DNA of 64,000 bases from Myxococcales bacterium (GCA_025350815.1 JANXXE010000051.1:37-64036); one strand, 5' to 3'. Shown: positions 6,087 through 44,362, numbered from the stretch's first letter. Made by a program: numbers and translations. Notes: generated by a model not told the origin, from the letters alone.

Positions 6087-8867
6087 GTGCAGGGAATGGA
6101 AGATTTCCCCCGCCGATTCGGGCCGTATGTCCTGATGAAGCCCCTGGCGCACGGGGGCATGGGCGCCCTGTGTCTGGCCGTGCATGGCTCGCGCGGGATG
6201 GAGAAGTTGTGCGTCGTCAAGACGGCGCTGCCGCACCTGCACGGCAGCAGCTACCTGCAGCGCTTCCGCGATGAGGCCAAGATCGTCGTTCGCCTGTCGC
6301 ACGGCAACCTGGTCGCCGTCTTCGACGCGGGTCAAGTGGACGGCGAGATCTTTCTGGCCATGGATTTTGTTGAGGGCAAGGATCTGCGCGCGGTGTGGAA
6401 CCGATGTGCGCAAAAGGGCATTGCCTTTCCCGTCGACGTCGCCGTGCACATCGCAAAAGAATTGGCGCGCGGGCTGGCCTATGCGCATTCCTTCGAGGGG
6501 CTTTCGCTGGTGCACCGGGATGTGTCGCCGCCCAATGTGCTTCTGTCCTACACGGGTGAAACCAAGCTGACCGATTTCGGCCTGGCGTCATCGACCCTGA
6601 AGCTGGAAAAGACCGCGCCGGGGGTCATCTACGGCAAGGTCAGCTACATGGCGCCCGAGCAGGCGCGCGGCGATGCCCTGGACGCGCGTGCCGATCTGTA
6701 CGGCGCCGGAATCATCCTGTGGGAATTGCTGACCGGGCGGCAGTTGTTCCCGTCGGCGGCCTCGCGGGGCGGCCCGGCCAGGCCCGAAGGACCGCCAGTC
6801 GACGACGATTTGCTGGACCGGGTGCGCGAGCCACAGGTGGTGGCGCCATCCCAGCGCGCCGCCCGGGTGCCGGCCGAGCTCGATCGCATAGTCCTGCGGG
6901 CCCTGGCGACCGCGCCGGGTGATCGCTACCAGACCGGCGAAGAATTTCGTTCTGACCTCGCTGCCTTCCAGGCCAAGACGGCGCCCTCCACGGATGGTGA
7001 CCATGTCGCGCGCTTTCTGCGCGGGCTATTCGGCGACGTCATCGACAAAGAACGCGCCGAAAGAACAGCCCTAGTGGTGGCGTCCGCACCTCTGCTCGGC
7101 TCGTCGTTGCCGCGGCCGGCGGAACGTCCCGCAAACGTGCCGCCGCCGATGCCCGGGACCAGTGCGTCGTCTTCGTCGTCCTCGGAAATGTTGGGCCCCG
7201 GCGATTCTCGCGACAAGACCAAGGCCGAGGTGGTGCGCGACGAGCCATCGGAGATCGTGGGTAACGTTCTGGCCGGTCGATACAAGATCAAGCGGCTGTC
7301 CGGCGAGGGGGGCATGGGCCGTGTCTATGAGGCCGAACACATCGAGATCGGCAAGCGCGTTGCCGTCAAGGTTCTGCATCCCGCCTACTGCCGCATGCCC
7401 GAGGTCGTCGAACGCTTCAGGCGCGAGGCGCGGGCCGCCTCGAAGATTGGGCATCCCAACATCGTCAACGTGACCGACTCGGGCACGACCGACGACGGAT
7501 CGTTCTTCTTCGTGATGGAATACATCGAGGGCGTCGAGGTCGGCCTGGTCATCCACAGGGAGGGGCCTCTGCCCGTCATGCGCGCGTTGCACATCACGCA
7601 GCAGATGTGTTTGGCGCTGAAGGCGGCGCACGAGGCGGGCGTCATCCACCGCGACTTGAAGCCCGAGAACGTGCTGCTGGTCGCCGGCGAAAGTGAGAAG
7701 GACTTCGTCAAGGTGCTGGATTTCGGCATCGCCAAGAGCGCCGACGTCGAGGAGACGGCGAAGTCCGGGCGTCGTCTGACCCGTCCGGGGGTCGCGATGG
7801 GCACGCCGGAATACATGGCGCCCGAGCAAGCGGCGGGCAAACCGGCCGACCCGCGATCGGATATCTACGCGGTCGGTTCGATCCTGTACGAGATGCTGAC
7901 CAGCGTTCCCCCCTACGACGGGGACAACGTCATGGAGGTCTTGCACAAGAAGGCGAACGAAGCTCCGAGGCCCCTGCGCGAGTTGCGCCCCGACGTCCCG
8001 GAAGGTGTTGAGGAGTTGGTGATCCGCGCGATGGCCCGCTCGCCTGCGGATCGCCCGCAGTCGATGGCGGATCTGGCGCGCGACATTCAGGCCATGATGA
8101 CGACGCTTGACGATGGCCTTGGTCTGGTGCCGCCAGCGCCACCCCGCCGACAGACCGAGATCGTTGCTGCGCGCGTACCGCCCAGTTCCGGTCTAAGGGC
8201 GCTCGGGCTGTCGCGCCGAACCGTGGCCATCGCGGGTGCGCTGTTGATGAGCCTGGGCGTCGTGGTGATTATTCGTGGTGCCACCGCTTCCCGACCGGCG
8301 CCGCGGGTTGCGGGGGCGTCGAATGTCCCTGTCAAGCGGGCGGCGACGGCAGGTCCCAGGGCGGCCGCCCGCCCGGCCGCACCAATGGCTGTGACCGTGG
8401 TGCCCGCCCAGCCTAGCGAAGAGCCGGCCGCGGTGGAACCTGCGCCAGCGAGGCGGGTCGATTTGAAGGCGGGGCGGGGCAAGGCGTCAGCGGCGCGGGG
8501 GCTGTCGCCGGATGCCGCCAATCGATTGATCGCCACTGGCAACCAGCAACTGGCGCTTCGGCACTACGACGAGGCCGGCGCGACGTTCACGGGGCTTCTG
8601 GGCAGCAAGCGGGACCACGGCCGGGCGGCTCTGGGCCTGGCGCAGGTGGCGTTTCAACAAAAGCGTTACACCGAGATGGCCCGCCGGGCGAAGGAAGCGG
8701 TGGGGGCGGGCGAAGGCGTTCCGGCGCTGGTCTTGTTGGGCGACGCCCACTACAAGTTGAGGAACTACAAGGACGCCGTGAAGGTGTACGACGAGGCCCT
8801 GAGGCGCGCCCCGGGCAACGCGGGGGCCCAGAAGGGTTTGCAGGCGGCCAGGCGCGGCCTCGACTGA
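6087..8867 (+). CDS. tandem (two-kinase-domain) Ser/Thr protein kinase with TM segment and C-terminal TPR region
   Basis: 926 aa. Domain 1 has [15 protein letters not shown] (catalytic-loop Lys replaced), DFG and APE. Domain 2 is canonical ([14 protein letters not shown]). A hydrophobic segment [16 protein letters not shown] and TPR-like repeats lie at the C-terminus. Confidence 0.9.
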
Positions 8868-8931: not shown

Positions 8932-11733
8932 ATGACCGGACGCTACCCTCGACGTTTCGGCAAGTACGTCCTCCTCAAGCCGTTGGCGAAGGGGGGAATG
9001 GGTGAGATCTACCTGGCGGCAGGGGGCGAGATCGGCGGCTTCGAAAAGCTGTGCGTGATCAAGAAGGTCCTCACCGAGAAGGCCGACAAGACCAAGGCCA
9101 ACCGTTTCCTCGATGAAGCCAAGGTGGTGCTGCGGCTGTCCCACTCGGCGCTGGTGACCACCTTCGACGCCGGCGAGGTCGACGGCGAGTTCTACATCGC
9201 CATGGAGCTGGTCGAGGGCAAGGATCTGCGCGAGGTGTGGAACCGCTGCGTGCGGACCCGGCAGCGTATCCCCCTGGATGTGGCATTGCATGTGGTGCGC
9301 GAGGTGGCGCGGGCGCTGGCCTACGTACACGCCTACGGCGATCTGAAACTGGTGCACCGGGATGTGGCGCCGCCGAACATCTTGCTGGCCTATGTCGGCG
9401 ACGTAAAGCTGACCGATTTTGGTTTGGCCCGCAGCGTTCTCAAGCAGGAACATACCGCCCCTGGCGTCGTGTTCGGCCGGGCGGCGTATCTTGCGCCCGA
9501 ACAGGCCCGCGGCGAGGTGGCTGACGCGCGCACGGACGTTTACACCCTCGGCATCGTGCTGTGGGAGCTGCTGACCGGACAGCAGTTCTTGCAGCTATCG
9601 GGACTGGATCCGGCGGCGGCCCTGGCCATTGTGCGGCACCCGAAGATTGCCCCGCCGTCCTCGCGCGCGCCGTGGATTTCCCCCGCGCTGGATCAGGTGG
9701 TGATGCGCGCACTGACGCCCGATCGCGACGCCCGCTACTCGTCCGCCGAGGAAATGCGGCAGGGATTGGCCGACGTGATGTCGGACATAGCGCCGCGCGG
9801 GGATTCGGCGCGCGTGGCGGAATTCTTGCGCGGGATTTATAGCGAAACCATCGAGGAAGAACGCGCCGAGCGCGACCATTATCTGAAGGACGAGATCCCC
9901 AAGTTTCGCGCCGCTCTGGTGGCCCCGGAACGCACATCATTGGTTGGTGCGGAGGCTGCGCTGGCGGCAATCTCCGACGAGGATTCGGCCCCCTCGGCGC
10001 CCGGTGCGGCCGGACAGCCGATCACCATCAGTGGTCCGGTCGGATCCCCCCCGGCACTCCCAGTCGCCAGTCCAGCGTCGGCGCCCCGCCCCCGAGTCGG
10101 ACGTTCCTGGACCTCGCCTCGCTTGCCCGGCTTGCCGCCGTCGATCGTCCAGCCGCGCGACGGGATCTCCCACGCTGACCCTTCCGCCGCATCGGCGCCC
10201 CCGGCAACGTCGGTGCCCGCAGGCCCCTCCCCTCGATTGTCGTTTGGCGGCACGCCCGCGCGGCCGGTCGCGGCCGCAACCAATGTTCGTCTGACGCCCC
10301 GGGCGGGGGCGCCCGTCGTCGCGGCACGTACGTCGCTGGACGCTGAACGATCGCCGGTCGTCCCGGCGCCCGTCGTCGAGGAATCGCCCCCTGCCGAGGC
10401 GCGCATCATCGCGGGCCGCTATCGGGTGGTCGGCACGCTGGGCGAGGGGAGTCTCGGGATCGTGTACGCCGTCAAGCAGTCCGACGGCGGCCAGGATCTG
10501 TCCTTGCGTGTGATGGCCCGCAGCCGTTCATTCGACGGGCCGCTGGCGGATCGCTGGCGCCGTGAGGTGCGCGCGGTTTCGTCACTCGGACATCCGCACT
10601 CGGTCCTGGTGCACGACCTTGGGATCACCGAAGACGGCGCCTCGTACGTCGCGATGGATCCTTTGTCGGGCATGGACCTGGCGACCTATGTCGCGCGCGA
10701 GCAGCGTCTCGATCCCGTGCTGGCCCTCAAGATCGTGACGCCGCTGTGCCAGGTGCTGGGGGCGGCGCACGCCGCCGGGGTGGCCCACGGGGCCCTGCGG
10801 CCCGAAAGTATCTTCCTCGCGCCGCGGGGCAAATCCGTCGACGCGGTCAAGCTGATCGATTTCGGGCTCGCGGCTGCGCTGACCAAGGATCTGGTGCCCC
10901 GGCGACTGACGCCGGAGTCATTGCCGGCCAATGTCGTCGAGTACCTCGCGCCCGAACAGCTGGCCGGCCAGGCCCCTGATGTGCTGTCGGATGTCTTCGG
11001 CGTCGGTGTGATCTTGTACGAAATGCTGACGGGCGCGCCGCCACACGCGGGCTCCGGCGATCTGGTCGGGCGGCGCAGCCAGGAGGCGCCGCAGTCGCCG
11101 CGCATGTTTCGCCCCGACATTTCCGAGCCCCTTGAACGTCTCACGCTGGCGATGCTCGACCGCGACCGGACCCGTCGTCCACGTTCGATGGCCGACGTCG
11201 AGACCGCGCTGGTCGGCCTGGCGGTGCCGGGGGTCCGGCCAGCGACTGGGGCGGACCCCGCCGGCTCCGATCTCGTGGTCGGCGCTGAAGAGCGCAGCCA
11301 GCGCCGGGTGACCCGCGACGCGGCCTTTCGCGCCATCGCCGATTTGTCCGCCGAGCCTCCGGCCGCGTTGCCCGCCCTGCTGGCACCGAGGACGGCGCCT
11401 GAAGTGGTGTTCGGTGTCCCCGTCGACGAGACGGCCACGACCGACCCCGAAATCCCCACGCTGCCGGCGTCTGCCTTGCGGCCGTCGGCTGCCCAAACCT
11501 CGTCGAGTTCGATCCCGGCCCGGATACCCGGGGGCGGCATGCTCGCGCGCTACGGCGCTGGGTCTGCAAGAAAACAGACCTCGCCCATCTCCGGCGCCGT
11601 GGTCCAGGTGGGGGGCGGCCTGGCCGTCGTCGGTCTGCTGCTGTTGCTGCTGCTGACCGATACATTCTCCTGCCGCGATCGCTCGGCCGCTTCGAAACCA
11701 TCAGCCAAGACCGCGACGACCAAGAAGCCGTGA
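8932..11733 (+). CDS. tandem-kinase-domain Ser/Thr protein kinase paralog; second domain is a predicted pseudokinase
   Basis: 933 aa. Domain 1 aligns by eye with domain 1 of the upstream kinase (HRDVAPPN, DFG, APE). Domain 2 has HGALRPES in place of HRD and retains DFG. Long Pro/Ala/Ser linker, then a C-terminal poly-Leu TM segment. Confidence 0.9.
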   Translation: MTGRYPRRFGKYVLLKPLAKGGMGEIYLAAGGEIGGFEKLCVIKKVLTEKADKTKANRFLDEAKVVLRLSHSALVTTFDAGEVDGEFYIAMELVEGKDLREVWNRCVRTRQRIPLDVALHVVREVARALAYVHAYGDLKLVHRDVAPPNILLAYVGDVKLTDFGLARSVLKQEHTAPGVVFGRAAYLAPEQARGEVADARTDVYTLGIVLWELLTGQQFLQLSGLDPAAALAIVRHPKIAPPSSRAPWISPALDQVVMRALTPDRDARYSSAEEMRQGLADVMSDIAPRGDSARVAEFLRGIYSETIEEERAERDHYLKDEIPKFRAALVAPERTSLVGAEAALAAISDEDSAPSAPGAAGQPITISGPVGSPPALPVASPASAPRPRVGRSWTSPRLPGLPPSIVQPRDGISHADPSAASAPPATSVPAGPSPRLSFGGTPARPVAAATNVRLTPRAGAPVVAARTSLDAERSPVVPAPVVEESPPAEARIIAGRYRVVGTLGEGSLGIVYAVKQSDGGQDLSLRVMARSRSFDGPLADRWRREVRAVSSLGHPHSVLVHDLGITEDGASYVAMDPLSGMDLATYVAREQRLDPVLALKIVTPLCQVLGAAHAAGVAHGALRPESIFLAPRGKSVDAVKLIDFGLAAALTKDLVPRRLTPESLPANVVEYLAPEQLAGQAPDVLSDVFGVGVILYEMLTGAPPHAGSGDLVGRRSQEAPQSPRMFRPDISEPLERLTLAMLDRDRTRRPRSMADVETALVGLAVPGVRPATGADPAGSDLVVGAEERSQRRVTRDAAFRAIADLSAEPPAALPALLAPRTAPEVVFGVPVDETATTDPEIPTLPASALRPSAAQTSSSSIPARIPGGGMLARYGAGSARKQTSPISGAVVQVGGGLAVVGLLLLLLLTDTFSCRDRSAASKPSAKTATTKKP

Positions 11734-16784: not shown

Positions 16785-18626
16785 GTGCCAACGGCACGTC
16801 GCCCTGATGTGTTCTTAGCGTCAGGGCGGACCTACACTAAACTGATCACATCCATGGCCGATCCTCGCACCGAAGGCATTTTTACCTCCTTGCGAGCCGC
16901 CGCGCGCGTGACCCACGACCGGTTTCTCGTCGGCGTCTCGGACGAGCGCGATCGAAAGCGCATCACCGCGGCGCTGGGTCTCGAGGGGTTGGTTGTCGAG
17001 CTCACCTCGACGCATGAGGCGCTGGATCGCCTGGCAGAGGAATCCTTCGAGTTGCTGGTCCTGGACGTCGATGAGGTGCGCGGCGCGCGCGATCCCCTGC
17101 CGGCCAGTCGCGAACTGCGGCCGTTTGCCGACCTGGTGGCGATTTTGGACAGCGATCCGATGCGTTGCAGTCAAGCGTTTGCCGGCGAGGTTGCGGCCGT
17201 CCTGCCACGGCCCTTGCCTCCGAACGACGCCCTGTTGCGCGCCCATCTGCGGTGGCTGGCGGCCTGTCGCCGATCGCGCACGCGCGGGTTGTTGCTGGGC
17301 AGTGCCCTGGCCCGCCACCGCGAGGACCTTCGCGCCGTAGAGCCCGCACTGGAAAGTGCCTTGTCAGAGATCCTGGCCGAGGCGGCGTTCGAGCCGACGG
17401 TCATGGTGATGGGCGACGCTGAACTTCTGCGCGTCGTCGGGGGCCGCCCCACCCACGCGGCGCCCGACGTTGTCGTGGTGGGTCTGGGGCAGGTCGACAA
17501 TCTGGAAGCGCGGCTGCAAGAGGCGCGGGCCCGAGCCGCCGGCGCGGCCCTGGTGGTGGTTGACGGTGCCGCGACGCCCGAGCGCCTGCGCGCGGCGATT
17601 TACGGAGGGGCGCGTGCCTATCTCGACCGCGGGAGGCTTGAGGATCTTGGGCGCGTTGTGGCGTTCGGTGCCATGCGCCGCCGGGCCGAAGTCAGCGGTC
17701 GGCGTCAGGTCGAAACGCTGGCACGTTTTGGTGTGCTCGATGAAAACGAGGGCACGACGCCCGCGCCGCCGAAGGATCTGGATGCCCGGCTGATAGCCGA
17801 CGCCACCGCCAGCGGCGGGCCGTTCGTTCCCTCCGGGCACGAGGTTCTGGTGGTTGACGACGAAGTGGTGGTCTTAACCGTCCTGCGCGAGGCCTTGCGC
17901 CGGGGTGGCTATCGCGTCACGACGGCGGCCTCGGCCGAGGAAGCCATCGATCTGATGAGGAAGCGGCCGTTTGATCTCGTACTGACGGACAAGAACCTTC
18001 CCGGCGCCTCGGGGCTCGAGGTCTTGCGGGCCTCCCGTCTGCTCGACCCGCCCCCTGCGGTTGTGCTCATCACGGGCTATTCGTCGTACGACTCGGCCGT
18101 CGAGGCCATGGACATTGGCGCGCACGACTACATCGAAAAACCGATCCGCGACGTCGAGAATCTGCGCTTTCGCATCCGTCGGGCCCTGTCCCGCCGCGAC
18201 CAGCAACTGGCGCGTAATAAGGCATCGCCCCCGGTGGGCGGCGCCAACGGGCGTGTTCTGGTGGTCGAGCTCGAAAGCAGCCGCCGGCAGTTGATCGCCG
18301 AGTTTTTGGGTCGCACCTACGACGTGACCGCCGCCGCCGATGGCGATGAAGCCCTGCGGTTGCTCCAGCTGGAACGCTACGACGTCGTGCTGGCCGACAG
18401 AAACTTGCCCGGGATGTCCGGTTTGCGCGTCATCGAACAGGCGCAGCGCCTGTTGCCGCATTGTGCGTCGGTGCTGTACACGGTCTATCCCTCGTATGAG
18501 ACCGTCAAGGAGGCGTTCGAACTGGGCGTCGACGCGTTCTTGGTTCGTCCCAGCGAGGACCTGAAGAACCTGGCCGAGAAGGTCGCAGGCGCCTTGCGCA
18601 GCCGCGGCGGTATTCTGCTCGGCTGA
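16785..18626 (+). CDS. multi-receiver-domain response regulator (three REC-like domains, no output domain)
   Basis: 613 aa. Canonical REC at roughly aa 355-470 (VLVVDDE...LTDKNLPG...DYIEKP). A second REC at roughly aa 485-600 has a degenerate acidic pocket (VVELESS). The N-terminal REC-like region is degenerate. Confidence 0.75.
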   Translation: MPTARRPDVFLASGRTYTKLITSMADPRTEGIFTSLRAAARVTHDRFLVGVSDERDRKRITAALGLEGLVVELTSTHEALDRLAEESFELLVLDVDEVRGARDPLPASRELRPFADLVAILDSDPMRCSQAFAGEVAAVLPRPLPPNDALLRAHLRWLAACRRSRTRGLLLGSALARHREDLRAVEPALESALSEILAEAAFEPTVMVMGDAELLRVVGGRPTHAAPDVVVVGLGQVDNLEARLQEARARAAGAALVVVDGAATPERLRAAIYGGARAYLDRGRLEDLGRVVAFGAMRRRAEVSGRRQVETLARFGVLDENEGTTPAPPKDLDARLIADATASGGPFVPSGHEVLVVDDEVVVLTVLREALRRGGYRVTTAASAEEAIDLMRKRPFDLVLTDKNLPGASGLEVLRASRLLDPPPAVVLITGYSSYDSAVEAMDIGAHDYIEKPIRDVENLRFRIRRALSRRDQQLARNKASPPVGGANGRVLVVELESSRRQLIAEFLGRTYDVTAAADGDEALRLLQLERYDVVLADRNLPGMSGLRVIEQAQRLLPHCASVLYTVYPSYETVKEAFELGVDAFLVRPSEDLKNLAEKVAGALRSRGGILLG

Positions 18627-18647
18627 TCTGTTACCGCGCCCGTTTTC

Positions 18648-20828
18648 TTGTACACTCGGGTCCTTCCAAACTTGAAAATTGCATTCACGCACAACCTCCA
18701 GCTGACAGACAGCGAGGACGAAGCCGAGTTTGACACAGTCGAAACCGTCGATGCCGTGGCCGATGGGTTGCGCGCGGGTGGTCACGAGGTCGAGAAGATT
18801 GAGGTCACCGGGCCGGCGTCGCACCTGGCCGCGCGCATCGAATCCTTCGCGCCGGATCTGATCTTCAACACGGCCGAAGGGCGCCGCGGACGCACGCGCG
18901 AGGCTTTTTACCCCGCGCTGTTCGAGGAACTGGGCTTCCCCTACACGGGTTCTGACGCCTACGTCCTGACGGTGACGCTGGACAAGTGGCTGACCAAGCT
19001 GATCTTGTCCGCCCAGGGCGTCGACACGCCGCGGGCCCGCTTGGTGGTTCCGGACGATCGGCGTCTGCGTGATCTCGGGGCCGTGGGTCTCGGCTATCCG
19101 GTCATCGTCAAACCTAATTACGAGGGCTCGTCGAAGGGCATCGGCGATGACGCCGTCGCGCGCGATCCCCGTGCGCTGGCCGAGATGCTGCCGCGGGCGC
19201 TGCGCAAGTATCCGGCGGGTGTGCTGCTGGAAGAATTCATCCCCGGCACGGACGTGACGGTGCCCTTCGTCGAAGGCCTCGGCGACGAGGGCGTGCTGTT
19301 GCCCGTCGACTACGTCTACGAGCCGGGCGCGCGCAGCCGCTTCAACATCTACGACTACCGCCTGAAGTCTGCTGAATCGAACCGCGTTTCCGTGCGCTGC
19401 CCGCCTGATCTGCCGCGCGATGTGGTGGCCCGCCTGCGCGCGCTGTCCAAACTGGCCATCCGGACTTTGGGTGTCCGGGATCTGGGTCGCATAGATTTTC
19501 GCGTCGGCGAAGACGGCCGCATCTTTTTGCTGGAGGTGAACGCGCTGCCGTCCCTGGAACGTGGGGCCAGCACGTTTGCTGCCGCCGCGCGCGAGGGTCT
19601 CGACTACGAAGCGGCGCTTGGCAGCATCGTTTCCAGTGCCGCGCGCCGCCAGGGTTTGCTGGTTCCCGCGGGCGTGCGGCGCCGGCGTCCGCCCGAACCT
19701 CTGCGCATTGGATTCACCTACAACGTCAAGCGGGTTGACTCGAAGGCGGGCAACGACGCCGAGGCCGAATACGACGCGCCCGAGACCATCGATTCGATTC
19801 GCGAGGCGATCGAGAGCCACGGGCACATCGTCCTGCCGCTGGAGGCCACGGCCGAGCTACCCCGACAGTTCACGGAGCAGCCTGTTGATCTGGTCTTCAA
19901 CATCGCCGAGGGCGTTTCGGGCCGCAACCGTGAGGCCGCCGTGCCCGCCCTGTGCGAGCTGATGGGCATCCCTTACACCGGCTCGGACGCGGCCACGTTG
20001 TCCATTGCCCTCGACAAGGCGCTGTCGAAACGCGTCCTGCGGCAGCACGGCATTCTGACGCCCGAGTTCCAGGTGATGGAATCCGGCCGCGAACGACTGT
20101 CGTCCAAGCTGAAGTTCCCCCTTATCGTGAAGCCCAATCAGGAAGGGTCCTCCAAGGGGGTCAGCGCCAGCGCCTCCGTGGTCGACGACGAGGAAGGCCT
20201 GCGGGCCGTGGTGCGGGAGCTGCTTGAGCGTTACCGGCAGCCGGCGCTGGTCGAGGACTATATCGCCGGCCGGGAATTCACCGTCGGCCTGCTGGGCGAC
20301 AAGCGCCCGCGCGTTTTGCCGCCGATGGAGATCCTGTTCAAGGACACCAGCAATCTGCGACCCGTTTACGACTACCAGATCAAGCAGGAATGGGAGAAGC
20401 ACGTCTACTACCAGTGTCCCGCCAAACTTTCGCCCGCCGAGCTCAAGGCCATCGAGCGGGTGGCGCGCGAGACCTTCTTGGCGCTCGCTTGTCGGGACGT
20501 GGCGCGCGTCGATCTGCGCATGGACGCCGCGGGCGAGCTGTGGGTCCTCGAGGTCAATCCCCTGCCGGGTCTGACGCCGGGCTATTCCGATCTGTGTCTG
20601 ATAGCCAACGCCGCCAACATCGACTACCGCTCGCTAATAGGCGAGATCATGGCCGGGGGGCTCAAGCGTCTGCGTGAGAAGCGTCGGGCCGAGGCCAGGC
20701 CCCCGGCCGCACCCACCCCCACCGCCTTTTCCCACGCCCCCGTGGCGGCCCACCCGGCCCCGGCCGCCGCCGCAAGCGCAACCGCCGAGGTTGCCGCCGT
20801 TCCGTCCGCCACCCTGACGCCGCCGTAG
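18648..20828 (+). CDS. tandem D-alanine--D-alanine-ligase-family ATP-grasp protein (two complete Ddl-like modules in one polypeptide)
   Basis: 726 aa. Each half has a Ddl N-domain followed by an ATP-grasp domain (VIVKPNYEGSSKGIG and LIVKPNQEGSSKGVS). The halves are mutually similar. Confidence 0.8.
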   Translation: MYTRVLPNLKIAFTHNLQLTDSEDEAEFDTVETVDAVADGLRAGGHEVEKIEVTGPASHLAARIESFAPDLIFNTAEGRRGRTREAFYPALFEELGFPYTGSDAYVLTVTLDKWLTKLILSAQGVDTPRARLVVPDDRRLRDLGAVGLGYPVIVKPNYEGSSKGIGDDAVARDPRALAEMLPRALRKYPAGVLLEEFIPGTDVTVPFVEGLGDEGVLLPVDYVYEPGARSRFNIYDYRLKSAESNRVSVRCPPDLPRDVVARLRALSKLAIRTLGVRDLGRIDFRVGEDGRIFLLEVNALPSLERGASTFAAAAREGLDYEAALGSIVSSAARRQGLLVPAGVRRRRPPEPLRIGFTYNVKRVDSKAGNDAEAEYDAPETIDSIREAIESHGHIVLPLEATAELPRQFTEQPVDLVFNIAEGVSGRNREAAVPALCELMGIPYTGSDAATLSIALDKALSKRVLRQHGILTPEFQVMESGRERLSSKLKFPLIVKPNQEGSSKGVSASASVVDDEEGLRAVVRELLERYRQPALVEDYIAGREFTVGLLGDKRPRVLPPMEILFKDTSNLRPVYDYQIKQEWEKHVYYQCPAKLSPAELKAIERVARETFLALACRDVARVDLRMDAAGELWVLEVNPLPGLTPGYSDLCLIANAANIDYRSLIGEIMAGGLKRLREKRRAEARPPAAPTPTAFSHAPVAAHPAPAAAASATAEVAAVPSATLTPP

Positions 20829-20839
20829 GTCGGGCCTGC

Positions 20840-21952
20840 ATGAGCGAGCGGCAGCGTCTGCGTCAGCTGGGCTTCTCGATCGGGCGATTCCCGACGGGGA
20901 CACAAAACGCCATCACCGATGTCGCGGGTGTTCGGGTCGGGCACACCACCCTTATCTCGGGCGAGGGCAAGCTGGAGATTGGAAAGGGCCCCGTGCGGAC
21001 CGGGGTCACCGCCATCGTGCCCCCGGCGCCCATCTTCACCGACCGGGTCGTGGCGGGTGCGTTTGTCCTCAACGGCGCCGGAGAAGTGTCGGGCCTTACC
21101 CAGGTGGTGGAATGGGGCCTGCTGGAGACGCCGGTTCTGCTGACCAGCACGATGTCCGTGGGCAAGGTTTCGGACGCCACCGTCAAATGGATGACCCGGC
21201 AGTTTCCGGGCATCGGCACCGACTACGACGTCATCATTCCCCTCGTGGGCGAATGCGACGATTCCTGGCTGAATGATTCCGTCGGGCGGCATGTCCGGTC
21301 CGAACACGTCTACCGCGCCATCGAACAGGCCAGCGGCGGTCCCGTGGCCGAAGGCGCGGTCGGGGCGGGCACGGGGCTTGTGACCTGCGACTTCAAGGCC
21401 GGCATCGGGACCAGTTCGCGTCGGGTGCCCGCCGAGGTCGGCCATTACACGCTGGGCGTTTTGGTCCAATCCAATTTCGGTGTCATGCGCAGCCTGGTGG
21501 TGAACGGCGCTCCCGTCGGAGAAATCCTCGCGCCCGAGTTTTCCTCGGCCGAAAAGCGAGTCCACAATGCCGGCTCGATCATCTGCGTCGTGGCGACGGA
21601 CGCGCCCCTGCTGTCGTCGCAGATCACCCGTTTGTGCAAGCGCGCGGCGCTGGGCATCGGCCGCGTGGGCTCATTCGCGGCGCACGGCTCGGGCGAGATC
21701 ATCGTTGGCTTTTCCACAGCCAACAAGGTGCCGCGCGAAACGCACGGCATGACCACGCGTCTTGAGGTCCTGCTCGATCCCGCCTGCGACGGCTTGTACG
21801 AGGCCGTGGTGGAGTGCACCGAGGAGGCCATCACGAACGCCCTGTGCATGGCCGAGGATATGCGCGGCCAGTCGGACCACTTCGCCCCCGCCCTTCCCCT
21901 CGATCGCCTGGCCACGATCCTCGACCGGCATCGCAAGGCCCACGCCGGCTGA
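20840..21952 (+). CDS. DmpA/S58-family (P1) aminopeptidase / D-Ala esterase-amidase-like self-processing peptidase
   Basis: 370 aa. N-terminal FPTGTQNAITDVAGVRVGHTT is characteristic of DmpA/BapA (ArgJ-fold) peptidases. Lies 11 bp after the upstream gene. Confidence 0.8.
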   Translation: MSERQRLRQLGFSIGRFPTGTQNAITDVAGVRVGHTTLISGEGKLEIGKGPVRTGVTAIVPPAPIFTDRVVAGAFVLNGAGEVSGLTQVVEWGLLETPVLLTSTMSVGKVSDATVKWMTRQFPGIGTDYDVIIPLVGECDDSWLNDSVGRHVRSEHVYRAIEQASGGPVAEGAVGAGTGLVTCDFKAGIGTSSRRVPAEVGHYTLGVLVQSNFGVMRSLVVNGAPVGEILAPEFSSAEKRVHNAGSIICVVATDAPLLSSQITRLCKRAALGIGRVGSFAAHGSGEIIVGFSTANKVPRETHGMTTRLEVLLDPACDGLYEAVVECTEEAITNALCMAEDMRGQSDHFAPALPLDRLATILDRHRKAHAG

Positions 21953-21968
21953 CGGGGACCTGTCGGCG

Positions 21969-23027
21969 ATGCGGGTTTGCTTTCTGGTCGGTGACATCAA
22001 GGCGCAGCAGCCCACGTACGGCGGCGTGTACCTGGCCTGGGCGGCCCATCGCCGTGGCCACGACGTGCGCTTCGTTTCGGTGGATGATCTGTCCTTTCTC
22101 GACGACAACAACATCCTGGCCACGACAACGCGCGTGCGCGCGGGCGACTACACGCGGCCTGCTGACTTCTGGCGGGCGCTGACCTCGGACGACGTGGTCA
22201 AGGAAGAGGACGCCCTTTCGGGATTCGATGTCGTCTTTCTGCGCTACAACCCGCTGCGCGAGGGGCCGGGCCTGCCCGGCTCGCCCGTCATCGACGTGTG
22301 CTGGCGCTTGCGGCTCGGCGGGACGCTGGTCATCAACGATCCGGAGGGCTTGCGCCGCGCGGGGGGGCGCATGTACCTGGGCGACCTGCCGCCCGAGATT
22401 CGCGCCAGAACGCTGGTGTCCCGCTCGGCCCGGCGCCTGAAGGAATTTCTGCGGGCCCTCGACGGGCCGGCGGTCCTCAAGTCACTGTCGCGAATGGGCG
22501 CCGAGAAGGTTTTCTACGTGCGGCGCCGCCAGGTTGCGAATCTCAATCAGATCATCACGGCCATCACCAAGACCGGGCACGCGGTCGCGCAGGAATACCT
22601 GCCCGAGGCGCAGCAGGGCGAAAAGCGCTTGTTGCTGCTGGGGGGCCAGCCCCTGCGGGTGGGCAAGCAGGTCGCTATTTACCGCCGGGTTCCCGCCCTG
22701 CGCCCCGCTGGTGGCGGCGCGGCCGATGCGCCGGGTACCGGACCCAAGGCCGGCAACACCAGGGCGGACTTTGGCCCGACCGAGGCCCGCCTGTGCGAAT
22801 TGCTTCGGCCGAAACTTCTGGCCGATGGTCTCTATTTCGTCAGCGTCGACATCGCCGGCGACCGCATTCTCGAGGTGAATGTGTTCACCCCCGGTGGGTT
22901 GCATTCACTGAAGGAGGTCTACAAGATCGACGCTGCCGCGGTGATCATGCGCGACGTCGAGCGGCGGGTTCGCCTGCGGGCTGCGTACCGGACGACCTTC
23001 GATCCCGAAGCCGCAGACGTGGTGTAG
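21969..23027 (+). CDS. glutathione-synthetase/RimK-like ATP-grasp ligase
   Basis: Internal ATG (MRVCFLVGDIK...) chosen to avoid overlap with the DmpA gene. GshB-like N-domain and ATP-grasp with GDRILEVNVFTPGG (compare GshB GDRLTEINVTSPT). Confidence 0.72.
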   Translation: MRVCFLVGDIKAQQPTYGGVYLAWAAHRRGHDVRFVSVDDLSFLDDNNILATTTRVRAGDYTRPADFWRALTSDDVVKEEDALSGFDVVFLRYNPLREGPGLPGSPVIDVCWRLRLGGTLVINDPEGLRRAGGRMYLGDLPPEIRARTLVSRSARRLKEFLRALDGPAVLKSLSRMGAEKVFYVRRRQVANLNQIITAITKTGHAVAQEYLPEAQQGEKRLLLLGGQPLRVGKQVAIYRRVPALRPAGGGAADAPGTGPKAGNTRADFGPTEARLCELLRPKLLADGLYFVSVDIAGDRILEVNVFTPGGLHSLKEVYKIDAAAVIMRDVERRVRLRAAYRTTFDPEAADVV

Positions 23028-23057
23028 GCGAACGTAGTGACAAGGGGCGGCTAGAAA

Positions 23058-24311
23058 ATGCCCCTGACTCCGGGTAGCCTGAAGGAACAGGTGAGCGCTT
23101 CTTCCGCCGATCGTGACCGCGACCGAGATCGGGATCGAGAGGCCGACGTCATGGATCTCGCGAGCCAGCCTGCGCCCGCCCAGCCGCCGGCGGAACCGGG
23201 TCCCGTCCTGACGGTATCGCCCGAGGAGATCTCGCGCTTCTTCGTGCGCGTCCGCCGCGACCAGGAAACCGAACGCTGGGACGTGCGTCTGGATGGGGCC
23301 CTGCGCGAGATTCTTGAGCGCGCAAACGAGTTCGTTCCGTCGGAATCGGGTGGCATCTTGCTGGACGATCCGCGCGCCAAGCTGGCGGGCGTGCGCACCC
23401 CGCGGCTGACGTTCATCGCGGTGTACGGGCCAGGCTCGGCACAGCTGCTCGGCATGCGTATCCCGAGCGATCGTGGATTTGTCGGACAGATTTACCGTTC
23501 GGGCAGCCCCTACCGGACCGACAATTTGACGCCCGACGATCCCCTGATCGTCACGGTGCCCCCGCGCCCTTCGGGGCCGCCCATCGGGTCCATCATCGGC
23601 GTGCCAGTCATCGTGGGCGAGTCGATCTGCGGCGTGTTGCAACTGGCGAACCGTCGTTCGGGTGGGCCCTACACTGTCCGTGACAACGAGTTGCTCCGGA
23701 TCTTTGCCGCCTACATGTCCTCGTCGATCCAGAACGCGCTCGACGCCATCCGGGCGCGGGCGCTGGCGAGGCTCGATCACCTGACGGGGCTTTTCAACAG
23801 TCGTTATTTCCACATCCGGTTGCAAGACGAAATCGTGCGCGCCGATCGGGATGGCACCGAACTTTCGATGCTGTTTCTCGACCTCGACAACTTCAAGCTG
23901 GTCAACGATCGCTTCGGCCATATGGCCGGTAGCTGGACCCTGCGCGAGGTGGCCCGCCTGTTGGCCGAAAATGCGCCACCAGCGACTGTGCTGGCGCGCT
24001 ACGGGGGCGACGAATTCGTGGCGATCCTGCCAGGGACGGGCCTACAGCGCGCGGTGCAGACGGCCGAATTGCTGCGGCGGGTGATTGCCGACGCGACCCT
24101 ATTCGACGTCGAATCGGAGCCCGGCCAACCCGCACAAATGCTGCCCGGCGTGCGTGCCTCGCTGGGCGTTGCGTCCTACCGGGATCACCTGGCACCCGGT
24201 GGCAACCAGCGCCGGCGTGAGAACGTCTTTCTGCGCCTGGCCGATTCGGCTATGTATCGGGCCAAGGCCAATGGTCGCAACCGCGTCGAAGTCGCCGAAG
24301 GCGAAGAGTAG
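23058..24311 (+). CDS. GAF-GGDEF diguanylate cyclase
   Basis: 417 aa. GAF-like N-region; GGDEF domain with RYGGDEF. The start may be the downstream Met at about 23151. Confidence 0.85.
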   Translation: MPLTPGSLKEQVSASSADRDRDRDRDREADVMDLASQPAPAQPPAEPGPVLTVSPEEISRFFVRVRRDQETERWDVRLDGALREILERANEFVPSESGGILLDDPRAKLAGVRTPRLTFIAVYGPGSAQLLGMRIPSDRGFVGQIYRSGSPYRTDNLTPDDPLIVTVPPRPSGPPIGSIIGVPVIVGESICGVLQLANRRSGGPYTVRDNELLRIFAAYMSSSIQNALDAIRARALARLDHLTGLFNSRYFHIRLQDEIVRADRDGTELSMLFLDLDNFKLVNDRFGHMAGSWTLREVARLLAENAPPATVLARYGGDEFVAILPGTGLQRAVQTAELLRRVIADATLFDVESEPGQPAQMLPGVRASLGVASYRDHLAPGGNQRRRENVFLRLADSAMYRAKANGRNRVEVAEGEE

Positions 24312-26157: not shown

Positions 26158-27606
26158 TCACGCGACGTTTCTCCGACGGAGCTTCTCGACGAGGGTGGTG
26201 CGGTTCATACCCAGCAGCTCGGCCGCGCGGTTCCGGTTGCCGCCCGTTCGTTCCAGCGCCTGTCCGATCAGGCGTTCTTCCAGTTGGTGCAGCAGCATGC
26301 GCAGGTCGACACCCGACGGTGGCAGGTCGACCATGCCCGCGTTCAGGTCCACGACGTCTGTGCGGAGGTTGGGGGGCAGGTCGTCAACTGTGACCATCCG
26401 GTTGCCGGCGACCAGAACCAGGCGCTCGATGGTGTTTTCAAGCTGGCGGACGTTGCCAGGCCAGTCGTGGGAACACAGGACTTCCATCACTTCGGGCGTG
26501 AAGCCAGGCACCGAACGCCGGTCGACTGCGTTGATCTCCTGGCGAAAATGCTCGGCCAAAAGGGCGATGTCCTCGCGCCGGTCGCGCAAGGCCGGCACGT
26601 CGATGGGGATGACATCCAGGCGGTAGAACAGGTCCTCGCGAAAGCTTCCGTCCTGCACCATCTGTTCGAGGTTGCGGTGCGTGGCCGCGATGACGCGGAC
26701 CTCCACGGGAACCGGATGGCTGCCCCCCACCTGCATCACCTCGCGCTCCTGCAGCACGCGCAGTAGCTTGCCCTGCAGGCTCTTCGGCATGTCGCCAATC
26801 TCGTCGAGAAATAGCGTGCCGTTCTGCGCGGCCAGCACCTTGCCAAGACGTGCCTTGTCCGCGCCCGTGAAGGCGCCCTTGGTGTGTCCGAGCAGTTCGG
26901 ACTCGGCCAGTGACTCAGGGATCGCCGCCATGTTCACGGCGACGAAAGGCCCGGCTCGGCGGGCGCTGGCGGCGTGAATCAGCCGGGCGAGAATTTCCTT
27001 GCCGGTACCGGTCTCGCCGCGGATGAGAACATTCGCCTCGGTGTCGGCCACCTGATCGATTCGTTCCAGGACAAGGCGCATCGCCGGGTGCTCGCCTATG
27101 ACGGCTGCGCCCCTGGTCTGCCGCACGTGGTTGGCGCGTGCCGGCTCGGCCAGTAACTTTTGCAGCGTTTCCTGAAAGAACATCGCGTGAAAGGGCTTGG
27201 CCAGAAAGTCGACCGCGCCCGCGCGCAGGGCGGCGACGGCGTCTTGCACCGTGCCTTCTCCGGTCAGGACCACGACGGACACTGGCGGTGTTCGCTTCCG
27301 CGCCGCCTCTAGTACGTCGAAGCCACTGGCCCCGGGCATGCGCAAGTCCGTGATGCACAGATCCACCTGTTCGGACTGGAGCAGGGCAATAGCGTGCGCG
27401 CCATCCGTCGCCTCGAGCGCTTCGTGCCCGACGGACGTCACCAGGCGATGAAGAATCGCCCGGATAGTGGGATCGTCATCCACCAGAAGGATGCGCTTGC
27501 TAATCAACAATCGGGGGATCCCATCGGCTGGATCGGCCACCCCCTTGAAGTGCGCTTCCGCGTCCGTGACCGGCTGATGCGTTGCGCGTGTACGCGAATC
27601 AGGCAT
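26158..27606 (-). CDS. sigma-54-dependent response regulator (NtrC family: REC + AAA+ with GAFTGA + Fis-type HTH)
   Basis: 482 aa. REC (LLVDDDPT...ITDLRMPG), Walker A GETGTGKE, GAFTGA motif present, C-terminal HTH. Confidence 0.9.
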   Translation of the reverse strand: MPDSRTRATHQPVTDAEAHFKGVADPADGIPRLLISKRILLVDDDPTIRAILHRLVTSVGHEALEATDGAHAIALLQSEQVDLCITDLRMPGASGFDVLEAARKRTPPVSVVVLTGEGTVQDAVAALRAGAVDFLAKPFHAMFFQETLQKLLAEPARANHVRQTRGAAVIGEHPAMRLVLERIDQVADTEANVLIRGETGTGKEILARLIHAASARRAGPFVAVNMAAIPESLAESELLGHTKGAFTGADKARLGKVLAAQNGTLFLDEIGDMPKSLQGKLLRVLQEREVMQVGGSHPVPVEVRVIAATHRNLEQMVQDGSFREDLFYRLDVIPIDVPALRDRREDIALLAEHFRQEINAVDRRSVPGFTPEVMEVLCSHDWPGNVRQLENTIERLVLVAGNRMVTVDDLPPNLRTDVVDLNAGMVDLPPSGVDLRMLLHQLEERLIGQALERTGGNRNRAAELLGMNRTTLVEKLRRRNVA

Positions 27607-27610
27607 TCGC

Positions 27611-29080
27611 TCACGCCGACTTGTCGTCGGTGCTCCAGGGCCCCTTGAAACCGGCGCGCGTCAAAAGCGAGCCGAATTCCTTCTTGGCGGGCGCGCGGTC
27701 GTAAGCCTCTTCCGGTGCGACGATGTCGTTCTTGACGAGATCCATCATCGAATCGTTCAGCGTTTGCATGCCCAGGCCCCGGCCCGTTTGCATCATCGAC
27801 GGAATCTGGAACGTCTTGCCGTCGCGGATCAGATTGGCGACGCCGGTCGTGACAATGAGAATTTCGAGCGCGGCGACGCGACCTCCGCCCTTCTTTTTCA
27901 GCAGCGTCTGCGCGACGACGCCCTTGAGGGATTCGGACAACATCACCCGGATCTGCGACTGGCGATCGGTCGGGAATTGATCAATCAGGCGGTCCACGGT
28001 CGACGGCGCCGTGTTCGTATGCAACGTGCCGAACACCAGGTGACCGGTCTCGGCGGTTTCGATGGCGATGGCCACTGTTTCAAGATCGCGCATCTCGCCG
28101 ACCAGGACGATGTCGGGATCCTCACGCAAAGCCGCCCGCAGCGCGGCCTTGAAGCTTTTGGTCTGCGTGCCGACCTCGCGCTGGTTGATGAGGCACTTTT
28201 TGTCCTTGTGGACGAATTCGACCGGGTCCTCGATGGTGATGATGTGATCGTCGCGGTTGGCGTTGATCCAGTCGACCATCGCCGCCAGCGTTGTCGATTT
28301 GCCGCTGCCCGTCGGTCCCGTCACCACCACCAGGCCCTTGTCGTACTGGCAGAAATCGAGACAGGCCTTGGGCAGGCGCAGTTCCTCGGCGGTCAGAATC
28401 TTCGACGGGATTTGCCGGAAGACGGCCCCGATGCCACCGATGTCGCGGAAGACATTGCAGCGCATGCGCGCGCGTTCGCCGAGCTCGTACGCGAAGTCGC
28501 TGTCATTGGTTTCCGCGAACTCGGCCCGGTTCCTGGCGGGCATGATGGCCTCGATGATGGGACCCAGCTGATCGGGCGTCAGGACAGCGCGGTCGGGCAT
28601 CACGGTCATGCTGCCGTCGATGCGCACCATCGGCACGTTGTGGGACTTGAGGTGCAGGTCAGACGCCTTCAGGTCGAGCATCTGGTGGAACAATTCGTCG
28701 ATGTGCTGCACGGGTCCCGCGTTGACCGGGGGGCGCCTGTCGGGCATCGAAATGGCGACGCTGGGCTTTGGTGCCGCGGGTGCCGCGCCGGCCAGTTTGA
28801 TCCGCACCGACAGGCCCACGATGGTGTCCTCGACGTCGATGGATACGCTGCCGATGGGCGCGGCGTAGGAATACGTGCGCGTGCCGGTCAGCCCCGGCGT
28901 GTAGGTGGCCCCAAGAACCTCGACCAGAAGACCTGCGATTTGTTCTTCGGACGCGGGTCGGGACGAAATGGGTCGGACTGATCCGCTGGCAATCAATTCG
29001 ACGGCCGCGCCGGCACGGAAGACCAGCGCCTCCGCCTTGTGCTTGACCATTGCTTCCAGGTAGCGGTCGAGGACTGCCAT
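27611..29080 (-). CDS. PilT/PilU-family type IV pilus retraction ATPase paralog with about 120-aa N-terminal extension
   Basis: 489 aa. The C-terminal roughly 370 aa align with PilT along the full length (GPTGSGKSTTLAAMVDWIN, HIITIEDPVEF, GEMRDLET, GHLVFGTLHT). The N-terminal extension looks like a degenerate PilT N-domain. Confidence 0.88.
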   Translation of the reverse strand: MAVLDRYLEAMVKHKAEALVFRAGAAVELIASGSVRPISSRPASEEQIAGLLVEVLGATYTPGLTGTRTYSYAAPIGSVSIDVEDTIVGLSVRIKLAGAAPAAPKPSVAISMPDRRPPVNAGPVQHIDELFHQMLDLKASDLHLKSHNVPMVRIDGSMTVMPDRAVLTPDQLGPIIEAIMPARNRAEFAETNDSDFAYELGERARMRCNVFRDIGGIGAVFRQIPSKILTAEELRLPKACLDFCQYDKGLVVVTGPTGSGKSTTLAAMVDWINANRDDHIITIEDPVEFVHKDKKCLINQREVGTQTKSFKAALRAALREDPDIVLVGEMRDLETVAIAIETAETGHLVFGTLHTNTAPSTVDRLIDQFPTDRQSQIRVMLSESLKGVVAQTLLKKKGGGRVAALEILIVTTGVANLIRDGKTFQIPSMMQTGRGLGMQTLNDSMMDLVKNDIVAPEEAYDRAPAKKEFGSLLTRAGFKGPWSTDDKSA

Positions 29081-33402: not shown

Positions 33403-34065
33403 GTGCACCAATTGCATACGCAGACGGTGGGACTGCCGGCGACAATCACCTTCGCGATTCTCGCCGGGCTGACTGTTATCGGGGCGCTGTTCACCATCAC
33501 GCGTCGGAATCCCGTCGTCGCCGTGATCTCGCTGGTTGGGACGTTTTTCGCGCTGGCCGGCGTCTACGCGTCGTTGTCGGCCCACTTTCTCGCCATCCTG
33601 CAGATCCTGGTCTACGCGGGCGCCATCATGGTGCTTTTCATCTTCGTCGTGATGATTCTCAACCGGGACGAGATCACGCGCGTCGCGGCCCGGGGCATGG
33701 TGCGGCGGGGTCTGGGCGTGGTCGCCGCTGGGTATGTCGTGTGGCTACTGGCGTCGGTGGTCGCGAATTCCAGCGCGACGCCGCTTCTGGGCGGTCCCCT
33801 GTCGGAGCCGGGAGCCGATTTCGGCACGGTGGCGTCGGTGGGCGCATCGCTGTTCACGGACTTCATGTTCCCCTTCGAGGCCGTCTCGTTGCTGTTGCTG
33901 GTGGCCGTTGTCGGCGGTCTGGTGGTCTCGCGCTCTGAGAAACAGGAAGACGACGCCGAAGAAACCGCGCGTCGCCGCGCCCAGGTCGCGACCGAGATTC
34001 GTCCCGAGTCAATGGTCGGGGGACCGACCGATGCCACGGCCAACCACGAGGCCGCCCACCACTAA
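33403..34065 (+). CDS. nuoJ: NADH-quinone oxidoreductase subunit J
   Basis: 220 aa, GTG start. Polytopic membrane protein with the NuoJ pattern (ILQILVYAGAIMVLFIFVVM). Confidence 0.82.
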   Translation: MHQLHTQTVGLPATITFAILAGLTVIGALFTITRRNPVVAVISLVGTFFALAGVYASLSAHFLAILQILVYAGAIMVLFIFVVMILNRDEITRVAARGMVRRGLGVVAAGYVVWLLASVVANSSATPLLGGPLSEPGADFGTVASVGASLFTDFMFPFEAVSLLLLVAVVGGLVVSRSEKQEDDAEETARRRAQVATEIRPESMVGGPTDATANHEAAHH

Positions 34066-34364
34066 TGCCAACCCTCTACTATCTGTACCTGTCCTTTGCG
34101 CTGTTCTTCATTGGGACGGCGGGTGTGCTTTTGCGCCGCAACGCGCTTATCGTTTTGATGGCGATCGAGTTGCAGTTGAACGCGGGCAACCTCGCCTTGC
34201 TCGCGTTTTCGCGCTCGCTCGGCGATCTCAAGGGGCACGTCTTTGCGTTCTTCGTGATTGCGCTGGCCGCTGCCGAGGCGGCCGTTGGTCTGGCCATCCT
34301 GGTCGGCATGTACCGAACCCGCCAGACGATCAATCTGGACGAAGTCGCCACGATGAAGCGTTGA
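34065..34364 (+). CDS. nuoK: NADH-quinone oxidoreductase subunit K
   Basis: 99 aa (MPTLYYLYLSFALFFIGTAGVLLRRNALIVLMAIELQLNAGNLALLAF). Confidence 0.9.
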   Translation: MPTLYYLYLSFALFFIGTAGVLLRRNALIVLMAIELQLNAGNLALLAFSRSLGDLKGHVFAFFVIALAAAEAAVGLAILVGMYRTRQTINLDEVATMKR

Positions 34365-34385
34365 TGAAGCGTTAGGGATCCACAC

Positions 34386-36602: not shown

Positions 36603-36604
36603 TC

Positions 36605-38235
<1,631 letters not shown>

Positions 38236-38239
<4 letters not shown>

Positions 38240-39729: not shown

Positions 39730-39738
39730 GTCGCGCGA

Positions 39739-44332: not shown

Positions 44333-44362
44333 AGTGCCGCTTTTCCCGGGAATTCAAGGAGC

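Follow-up and report, generated by a model that had tools for sequence, protein, structure and literature searches.

A tandem Ddl-like ATP-grasp ligase and an S58-family peptidase form a conserved gene pair in Myxococcota and Bdellovibrionota

A 64-kb stretch of DNA from a Myxococcales bacterium, the whole of which was analysed and is called the window here (G+C approximately 66%; coordinates without a locus name refer to it), carries five plus-strand open reading frames (ORFs) between positions 16785 and 24311, which were called and assigned to domains with Pfam and NCBIfam (Table 1). At their centre lies a gene for a ligase with two D-alanine-D-alanine ligase-like (Ddl-like) ATP-grasp modules in a single chain, followed by a gene for a peptidase of family S58. 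A response regulator gene precedes this pair, and a GshB-like ATP-grasp ligase gene and a diguanylate cyclase gene come after it. A first-pass annotation of the DNA had joined all five into one ribosome-independent peptide-ligase system, and its gene identities are borne out, as every ORF lies where it was placed and has the domains named for it. The intergenic gaps are, in gene order, 45 (or 21), 11, 16 and 30 bp. The long ligase ORF opens at TTG 18648, and orthologues as well as a 718-residue database entry (P0001) open at TTG 18672 (MKIAFTHNLQ), which is probably the true start and widens the regulator-ligase gap, first given as 20 bp, to 45 bp; the 11 and 16 bp gaps stand as reported. The regulator has a second possible start at ATG 16854. 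With one strand, gaps of 11–45 bp and terminator-like sites between the genes not above shuffle expectation in a promoter and terminator scan, the layout is operon-like. An Rfam scan of 15.5–26.2 kb returned no element, and the PADLOC defence models gave zero matches on the three enzymes (double ligase, S58 and GshB-like).

The conserved unit within this layout is the double ligase plus the S58 gene alone, because all other flanking genes vary by lineage. At 79% identity or above, the window ligase matches more than 120 clusters (90% identity), one of them named Polyangia. A locus scan with one genome per species, its alignment led by a ligase relative of 40% identity, yielded 80 loci, whose context was read by tblastn with the window proteins and by clustering of called genes; the 74 loci with at least 1.5 kb of downstream sequence were counted. 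The S58 gene lies immediately downstream of the ligase on the same strand in 40 of the 74, with a gap of 53–437 bp, within 8 kb on the same strand in a further nine, and in divergent orientation to the ligase in one. Amid otherwise different flanks, adjacency in 40/74 loci is far beyond chance, and the possibility raised at the outset, that homologues are never co-localised elsewhere, does not apply to the ligase and S58. Ligase loci occur in all major Myxococcota groups (Myxococcus, Corallococcus, Citreicoccus, Archangium, Anaeromyxobacter and Sorangium, and further Kofleriaceae, Haliangiales and Bradymonadia), in Bdellovibrionota (Pseudobdellovibrionaceae, Bacteriovoracaceae and Oligoflexia), and in single metagenome-assembled genomes (MAGs) labelled Nitrospirales, Planctomycetaceae, Vulcanimicrobiota, Acidobacteriota and Gemmatimonadaceae. 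Those with a linked S58 gene span Myxococcota, Bdellovibrionota, Nitrospirales, Planctomycetaceae and Vulcanimicrobiota, with Myxococcus, Corallococcus, Citreicoccus and Sorangium as cultured genera. Since the link is kept across phyla, the pair can reasonably be read as a ribosome-independent unit of ligase and peptidase. Its extension to a single five-gene system is not upheld, as the GshB-like, regulator and cyclase genes are limited to certain lineages.

Beyond the pair itself, the surroundings differ between groups. In Myxococcia the flanks hold hemB together with one DUF4177-like and one RDD-like gene. The genes found between ligase and S58 in Myxococcaceae (carotenoid-oxygenase-like, TetR regulators and others) are mutually unrelated and were dismissed as candidate members. 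In one Bdellovibrionota-like clade the pair comes after a divergent potCBA polyamine ABC transporter and an agmatinase-like gene and has uppP behind it (L008:3125-11088; L011, L012, L019), a polyamine and cell-envelope setting that other lineages do not show; the remaining lineages have unrelated genes around the pair. A general link to polyamines was rejected, as potCBA with the agmatinase-like gene is found in that clade only (L008, L009, L011, L012, L019) and the 'PotA' matches outside it are generic ATP-binding cassette ATPases.

Table 1. Coordinates of the genes and modules at the window locus, and of KamA-linked Ddl-like gene sets in other loci.
Feature	Location	Strand	Domain evidence or remark
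Multi-REC response regulator without output domain	16785-18626	+	Pfam Response_reg 161.8 bits, 2 stretches
Tandem Ddl-like ATP-grasp ligase, 726 residues as long ORF	18648-20828	+	PF07478 217.7 bits, 2 stretches
Ligase N-module, type N	~18672-19680	+	
Ligase C-module, type C	~19683-20700	+	Pro/Ala-rich tail after it
Peptidase S58 (DmpA/BapA family)	20840-21952	+	PF03576 372.4 bits
GshB-like ATP-grasp ligase	21969-23027	+	GSH-S_ATP 102.6 bits, GSH-S_N 33.2 bits
GAF-GGDEF diguanylate cyclase	23058-24311	+	GGDEF 117.8 bits, GAF_2 57.5 bits
KamA-Ddl fusion, then two more Ddl-like genes	L005:8001-12321		
KamA-Ddl fusion, Ddl-like gene, GNAT	L006:8001-11914		
Ddl-KamA fusion, then Peptidase_S51	L007:2341-5196		
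KamA, double Ddl-like gene, GNAT-HDAC fusion	L090:218-5821, L091:830-5420		

The ligase holds two complete Ddl-like modules in one polypeptide, as the first-pass annotation had it, with two PF07478 stretches and all catalytic residues in both; when aligned, the halves share 36% identity (E-value 9e-59). Both modules were aligned to E. coli DdlB, whose numbering is used throughout, and compared across 76 orthologues. K97, K144, S150/S151, E180, K215, R255, D257, E270 and N272 are kept in both modules and near-invariant among the orthologues, and both modules therefore appear to be catalytically intact and under selection as active ligases. The substrate side has been rebuilt. Glutamate takes the place of H63 and arginine that of E68, invariantly or nearly so in both modules, and D69 is glutamate in the double-ligase family. 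Y216 gives way to N, S or T in N-modules and to Q or L in C-modules (S and Q, respectively, in the window protein), G276 becomes serine in N-modules, and L282 is aspartate in every C-module, the window protein carrying T or D. The residues that form the D-Ala pocket and specificity determinants of Ddl (H63, the E15-S150-Y216 triad and L282) are thus not matched, and their replacements are family-wide; D-Ala specificity is not indicated for this ligase. S281 is kept in the C-module; in Ddl-type enzymes this residue binds the carboxylate of a free amino-acid nucleophile.

These substitutions bear directly on a cell-wall variant of the pair, where the ligase would make D-Ala-D-Ala or a D-Ala-D-X depsi- or dipeptide that serves peptidoglycan precursors or recycling, and S58 would be a D-aminopeptidase for editing or recycling. 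Ddl is the closest match of the ligase both in the PDB (8EVY, 2.3e-33) and in NCBIfam, where the two modules summed exceed the subfamily cut-offs (NF002378 323.7 against 243, TIGR01205 274.7 against 245.65), but every Ddl/Van equivalog and exception model stays below its cut-off (for example NF011169, 227.7 < 404). DmpA, for its part, is a D-Ala amidase and aminopeptidase, and uppP lies behind the pair in the Bdellovibrionota-like clade described above. Set against this are the replacement of H63, Y216 and L282, the invariant charged residues at 63, 68 and 282, and the futile cycle that would result from making and hydrolysing enzymes encoded in one operon. Mur, fts and dcw genes are absent as conserved neighbours in the 80 loci, as is ddl-type context, and none lies around the window ligase, whose neighbours are RNase R, a BamB-like protein, an outer-membrane protein, regulators and S58; no further Ddl homologue was found in the 64-kb window. 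We consider a cell-wall role of this kind improbable. Given the lack of mur/fts context and the conserved differences at the substrate site, the double ligase is predicted not to be a cell-wall Ddl, which argues against the earlier concern that it might simply be a duplicated copy in murF/ftsQ-type surroundings.

The partner gene encodes a predicted self-processing N-terminal nucleophile (Ntn) aminopeptidase or amidase whose catalytic site appears intact, in agreement with the initial call of a DmpA/S58-type enzyme. The PF03576 match (372.4 bits against a cut-off of 23.9) spans residues 23–347 of 370, and the PDB matches are P. horikoshii 2DRH (2.6e-90), BapA 3N2W (7.7e-72) and DmpA 1B65 (3e-65). 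The G|S site of self-cleavage, which supplies the nucleophile, is preserved, with 'NAG|SIICVVATD' aligning to 'ERG|SIIVVLATD' of DmpA and 'DKN|SLLIVIATD' of BapA; 'GSGEI' (the SG(D/E) motif) and 'PLVGEC' align with the same two enzymes, and the glutamate equivalent to BapA E133, which binds the substrate amino group, is conserved in the S58 alignment. No signal peptide is evident on the protein. Members of the S58 family also cleave N-terminal D-Ala and Gly. Hydrolysis by DmpA and BapA removes N-terminal beta-Ala and beta-homo-amino acids and acts on aminoacyl amides, and both enzymes can run in reverse through aminolysis (PMC9235088). The documented aminolytic, peptide-forming activity of this DOM-fold family (PMC9235088), together with the intact catalytic Ser and oxyanion motifs, would also allow S58 to serve as a transferase, in the manner of ArgJ or of DmpA/BapA aminolysis, taking the N-terminal aminoacyl group of the ligase product onto its Ser nucleophile, passing it to another amine and turning the pair into an aminoacyl-donor factory. 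Aminolysis by DmpA and BapA is, however, known only in vitro and from activated donors, and no acceptor-related gene is conserved near the pair, which makes a transferase role very improbable.

A lead to the substrate comes from more distant relatives of the ligase. A HMMER search of 1.84 billion representative proteins gave 1460 clusters at E < 1e-30, which include double-module and single-module proteins as well as fusions to radical-SAM KamA-type 2,3-aminomutases (P0179, P0200). Deltaproteobacteria, Nitrospirota, Omnitrophota and archaeal MAGs commonly carry KamA-Ddl fusions, several of which lie in longer gene sets (Table 1). The aminomutase part of P0179 retains D293 and D330 of C. subterminale lysine 2,3-aminomutase (2A5H), which bind the lysine epsilon-ammonium, and is thus of the lysine type. 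The modules fall under three residue signatures. Type C (E63, G64, R68, E69, G276, S281, D282) is shared by the window C-module, all KamA-fused modules and P0163, the modules compared being P0179, P0200, L007 and P0186_m1; type N (D187, S276) is found in the window N-module and P0168; type X (W216, G281, F282) marks the second module of the KamA-linked systems. The window C-module is 47% identical to P0179 and 41% identical to the C-module of the P0133-type orthologue, and in a neighbour-joining tree, which carries no support values, the type-C modules fused to KamA and the C-modules linked to S58 are interspersed. This kinship suggests a lysine-like or beta-amino substrate for the C-module, which we regard as a lead and not a result. 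The KamA-linked Ddl-like systems are widespread and apparently uncharacterised, and their joining of a lysine-type aminomutase with Ddl-like modules suggests that they make beta-lysine-containing peptides. The single-module relatives P0163 and P0168 were considered as context clues and set aside, as they were uninformative or their contigs too short.

The third ligase of the window has the GshB-like ATP-grasp domains first described for it, and its membership of the cassette is not constant. It falls below the cut-offs of the GshB equivalog models (NF003573 and TIGR01380, 139.6 against 272 and 136.2 against 299), and the PRK12458 model NF009110 aligns from end to end yet scores 253.9 against a cut-off of 408, with 236.8 for the homologue at L021. 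Neither the five genes nor the neighbours annotated at 8.9–31.5 kb include a gamma-Glu-Cys ligase. A metagenome scan for PRK12458 relatives, led by a Vulcanimicrobiota homologue (L067), showed true members scoring 446–462 bits (L067 446, L119 462), and in 36 of 48 such loci the gene ends an operon in the order FGase-like (264 residues), QEGLA/DUF1704 (TIGR02421, ~650 residues) and ligase (L095-L171, for example L171, L097 and L119). Such a conserved operon argues against true PRK12458 being a simple glutathione synthetase. A Ddl-like pair lies near true members in 2–3 of 41 long loci, and the FGase-like and QEGLA/DUF1704 partners are missing from the window operon; the window protein represents a diverged offshoot of PRK12458.

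The association of this offshoot with the pair is confined to the window's Polyangia clade and a second, related lineage (L021, L172). It is tightly linked to the pair in 11 loci of that clade, and stays close by in L001 despite insertions, where three very large spermine/spermidine-synthase-like proteins (753, 918 and >1050 residues, one with an MFS-like part) have entered around the GshB-like gene and between it and S58 (L001:13413-22175). The pair has it again in L021, at 41% identity and two genes downstream of S58, and in L172 (44%). The latter, on a 185-kb metagenome contig, has the double ligase and S58 broken over several reading frames (L172:3969-7317), which could reflect assembly frameshifts or pseudogenes; downstream of the pair it carries the GshB-like gene and then genes for a HAMP histidine kinase and a sigma-54 activator. 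Kinases of that family also come after the ligase in S58-less loci of the Kofleriaceae type. The GshB-like ligase is therefore plausibly a lineage-specific recruit to the cassette in two Polyangia-type lineages, and a functional partnership with the pair is plausible.

The PRK12458 operon also brings in a different type of chemistry, as a ligase beside QEGLA/DUF1704 and an FGase-like amidohydrolase (the 36/48 metagenome loci) resembles ligase/peptidase tagging cycles. By analogy, the ligases of the window may add amino acids in RimK/TTL style to the terminus or a side chain of a protein or peptide, from which S58 would remove them, and the RimK and TTL Pfam models do give weak, sub-threshold matches on the ligases. 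No conserved candidate for a substrate protein, however, adjoins the pair in the 80 loci. S58 enzymes act on free N-termini whereas RimK/TTL tags are C-terminal, and the residue for a free amino-acid carboxylate, S281, is kept in the C-module. A tagging cycle is in our judgement unlikely.

The outer two genes are the least constant. Three receivers had been proposed for the regulator, of which two are canonical REC domains by Pfam (residues 354–460 and ~490–600), with the acceptor Asp in 'LVLTDKNLPG' and 'VVLADRNLPG'. There is no Pfam match in the N-terminal 350 residues (16785-17834). Profile-profile comparison with hhalign aligns residues ~45–155 to REC over 108 columns (probability 71%, E 3.7e-5) with an Asp at the acceptor position, which supports a degenerate REC-like domain there and makes the count of three roughly right; residues 190–345 are conserved among orthologues and have no domain match. 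The cyclase has an intact GGDEF motif ('YGGDEF'). Where the ligase is less than 81% identical to that of the window, neither a regulator nor a GGDEF gene accompanies the pair, and a GGDEF gene lies beside the GshB-like gene in 7/80 loci (L038, L039, L045, L054, L055 and L064, with others at a gap). Even close relatives vary: L002 has the window's gene order, L003 lacks the regulator and has its GGDEF gene 6.5 kb off, and L001 has no GGDEF gene in its flank and two genes inserted ahead of the GshB-like one. Regulator and cyclase are lineage-specific syntenic neighbours and not demonstrably part of the mechanism. The proposal of signal-controlled production, or of a link to cyclic di-GMP (c-di-GMP), finds nothing beyond local synteny and is unsupported, because this synteny is confined to the window's clade and inconstant even there.

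The three extra genes may also belong to no system at all and merely keep an inherited order in one Polyangia clade, a view compatible with our model of the pair. The patchy occurrence of regulator and GGDEF genes (only at ligase identity of at least 81%, and then not always, as in L001 and L003) fits this, as do GshB-like homologues without the pair (L173, L174) and the other partners of most PRK12458 members. The GshB-like gene nevertheless begins only 16 bp past S58, remains near the pair in L001 despite the insertions, and reappears with the pair in the distant L021 and L172 at 41–44% identity. That nothing beyond the pair is at work seems somewhat unlikely, if the most serious of the alternatives considered.

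The surroundings of the cassette are rich in signalling genes. Upstream lie a GAF-MshEN-T2SSE ATPase (3679-6048) and two large proteins with two Pkinase stretches each (6087-8864 and 8932-11733); MshEN is a c-di-GMP-binding domain in other proteins. The GGDEF gene of the locus, the sigma-54 activator and a second T2SSE ATPase (26158-29080) add to this. The wider window reads as ordinary chromosome, with Tex, Ser/Thr kinases, RNase R, a BamB-like protein, a sigma factor, a sigma-54 activator and nuo genes. AT skew is strongly negative (-0.22 to -0.30) at 34000-40000 and 44000-46000, over polytopic membrane-protein genes that include three Proton_antipo_M (nuoL/M/N-like) genes and a PMT_2 glycosyltransferase.

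Our analysis favours a model in which the functional unit is a two-gene cytosolic cassette of double ligase and S58. The tandem ligase would most likely carry out two successive ATP-dependent, acyl-phosphate-mediated amide ligations and so build a small non-ribosomal peptide or amide of at least tripeptide size. Its substrates are expected to be other than D-Ala and D-Ala, and to include a charged, possibly basic or beta-amino-acid building block, because of the invariant E63, R68, E69 and D282 and the kinship of the C-module to KamA-fused modules. S58 would then take the N-terminal residue off the ligase product, in a step of turnover, recycling or editing comparable to that of cyanophycinase on cyanophycin. 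In the window's lineage, the GshB-like enzyme would probably add one residue to the C-terminal carboxylate of the product or a precursor. The gene content, the intact catalytic and altered substrate residues, the ligase-S58 adjacency and the lineage-restricted third ligase form the observed basis of this model. Taken as a whole, that is a two-step ligase product, trimming by S58, extension by the GshB-like enzyme, and regulator and cyclase as neighbours only, we give it a probability of about 0.5. A more specific version, by which the pair is a widespread pathway, so far unrecognised, that makes and recycles a cytosolic oligopeptide whose N-terminal residue is a beta-amino acid or another non-proteinogenic one, possibly basic and lysine-derived, is speculative and on balance unlikely, though less so than tagging or a cell-wall role.

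Several observations weigh against the model. S58 is absent from the flank in 24 of the 74 counted loci, mostly in a Kofleriaceae/Haliangiales-like clade. GshB-like homologues occur at L173 (56% identity) and L174 (42%) with no pair in the flank covered. Neither the 64-kb window nor any of the 80 window-type loci holds a KamA gene, so that a beta-lysine substrate is unsupported in cis, and the interleaving of KamA-fused and S58-linked modules comes from the tree without support values. The Ddl subfamily cut-offs are exceeded (323.7 against 243), leaving a Ddl-like reaction formally possible. The pocket arguments come solely from alignment to E. coli DdlB, because the predicted structure of the double ligase, built from a close-relative alignment, is of unusably low confidence (predicted local distance difference test score 37.9, predicted template-modelling score 0.24).

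The pair matters first for annotation. In Myxococcota and Bdellovibrionota genomes by the hundred the double ligase is named 'D-alanine-D-alanine ligase', which is probably wrong. The enzyme looks instead like an amide ligase that works in two steps and has a peptidase as its obligate partner, and its product would add a metabolite (or modification) that is neither ribosomal nor made by a non-ribosomal peptide synthetase to the repertoire of predatory and social bacteria. The S58 family has so far been known mainly for synthetic beta-peptides and D-Ala amides, and this product could be its long-missing natural substrate. The aminomutase-fused relatives offer a concrete substrate lead, and cultured carriers of the pair in Myxococcus, Corallococcus and Sorangium are tractable hosts. 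If the more specific pathway holds, the DmpA/BapA 'beta-aminopeptidase' family would gain its first natural substrate and its first physiological role, and the pair would be tied to a sister group of Ddl-like ligases that are coupled to aminomutases and make beta-lysine peptides.

An ATP-grasp ligase encoded beside its own peptidase is a well-known theme, and such pairs were reportedly treated as one by Iyer et al. 2009; the architecture of the window ligase and its pairing with S58 apparently have not been characterised. The searchable literature holds no description of the pair or of its KamA-linked relatives, in line with the first-pass view that the gene order is not a described pathway, and an earlier in-silico mention in surveys of ATP-grasp enzymes is possible. 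Like members of the DdlB/VanA family, each ligase module has all three domains of the Ddl layout and keeps every ATP/Mg and catalytic residue. The differences lie in the two modules per chain, the replaced H63, E68, Y216 and L282, the S58 partner and the absence of dcw/mur context. The S58 protein shares with DmpA and BapA (MEROPS S58/P1, Ntn DOM-fold) a full-length match, the cleavage site, the Ser, the SG(D/E) motif and the amino-group Glu. Among solved structures, however, it is closest to the uncharacterised P. horikoshii 2DRH, and no characterised DmpA/BapA enzyme was found to be encoded beside an ATP-grasp ligase. The GshB-like protein aligns end to end with the PRK12458 model and has both GSH-S_N and GSH-S_ATP domains, but falls below the cut-offs and has Ddl-like and S58 partners in place of FGase-like and QEGLA. 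Cyanophycin synthetase and cyanophycinase offer the closest parallel in logic, a cytosolic ATP-grasp amide ligase gene beside the hydrolase of its product. The window ligase differs in lacking the Mur_ligase-like M domain and the N domain of cyanophycin synthetase, consisting only of Ddl-type modules, and the window peptidase is S58 whereas cyanophycinase is S51; there is no sign of a polymer at the window. The KamA-linked systems share the type-C signature, 41–47% identity to the window C-module and the serial arrangement of two or three Ddl-like modules. They are distinguished by the aminomutase, the type-X module and GNAT, HDAC or S51 partners, whereas the window-type cassette combines a type-N module with S58 and has KamA in 0/80 loci.

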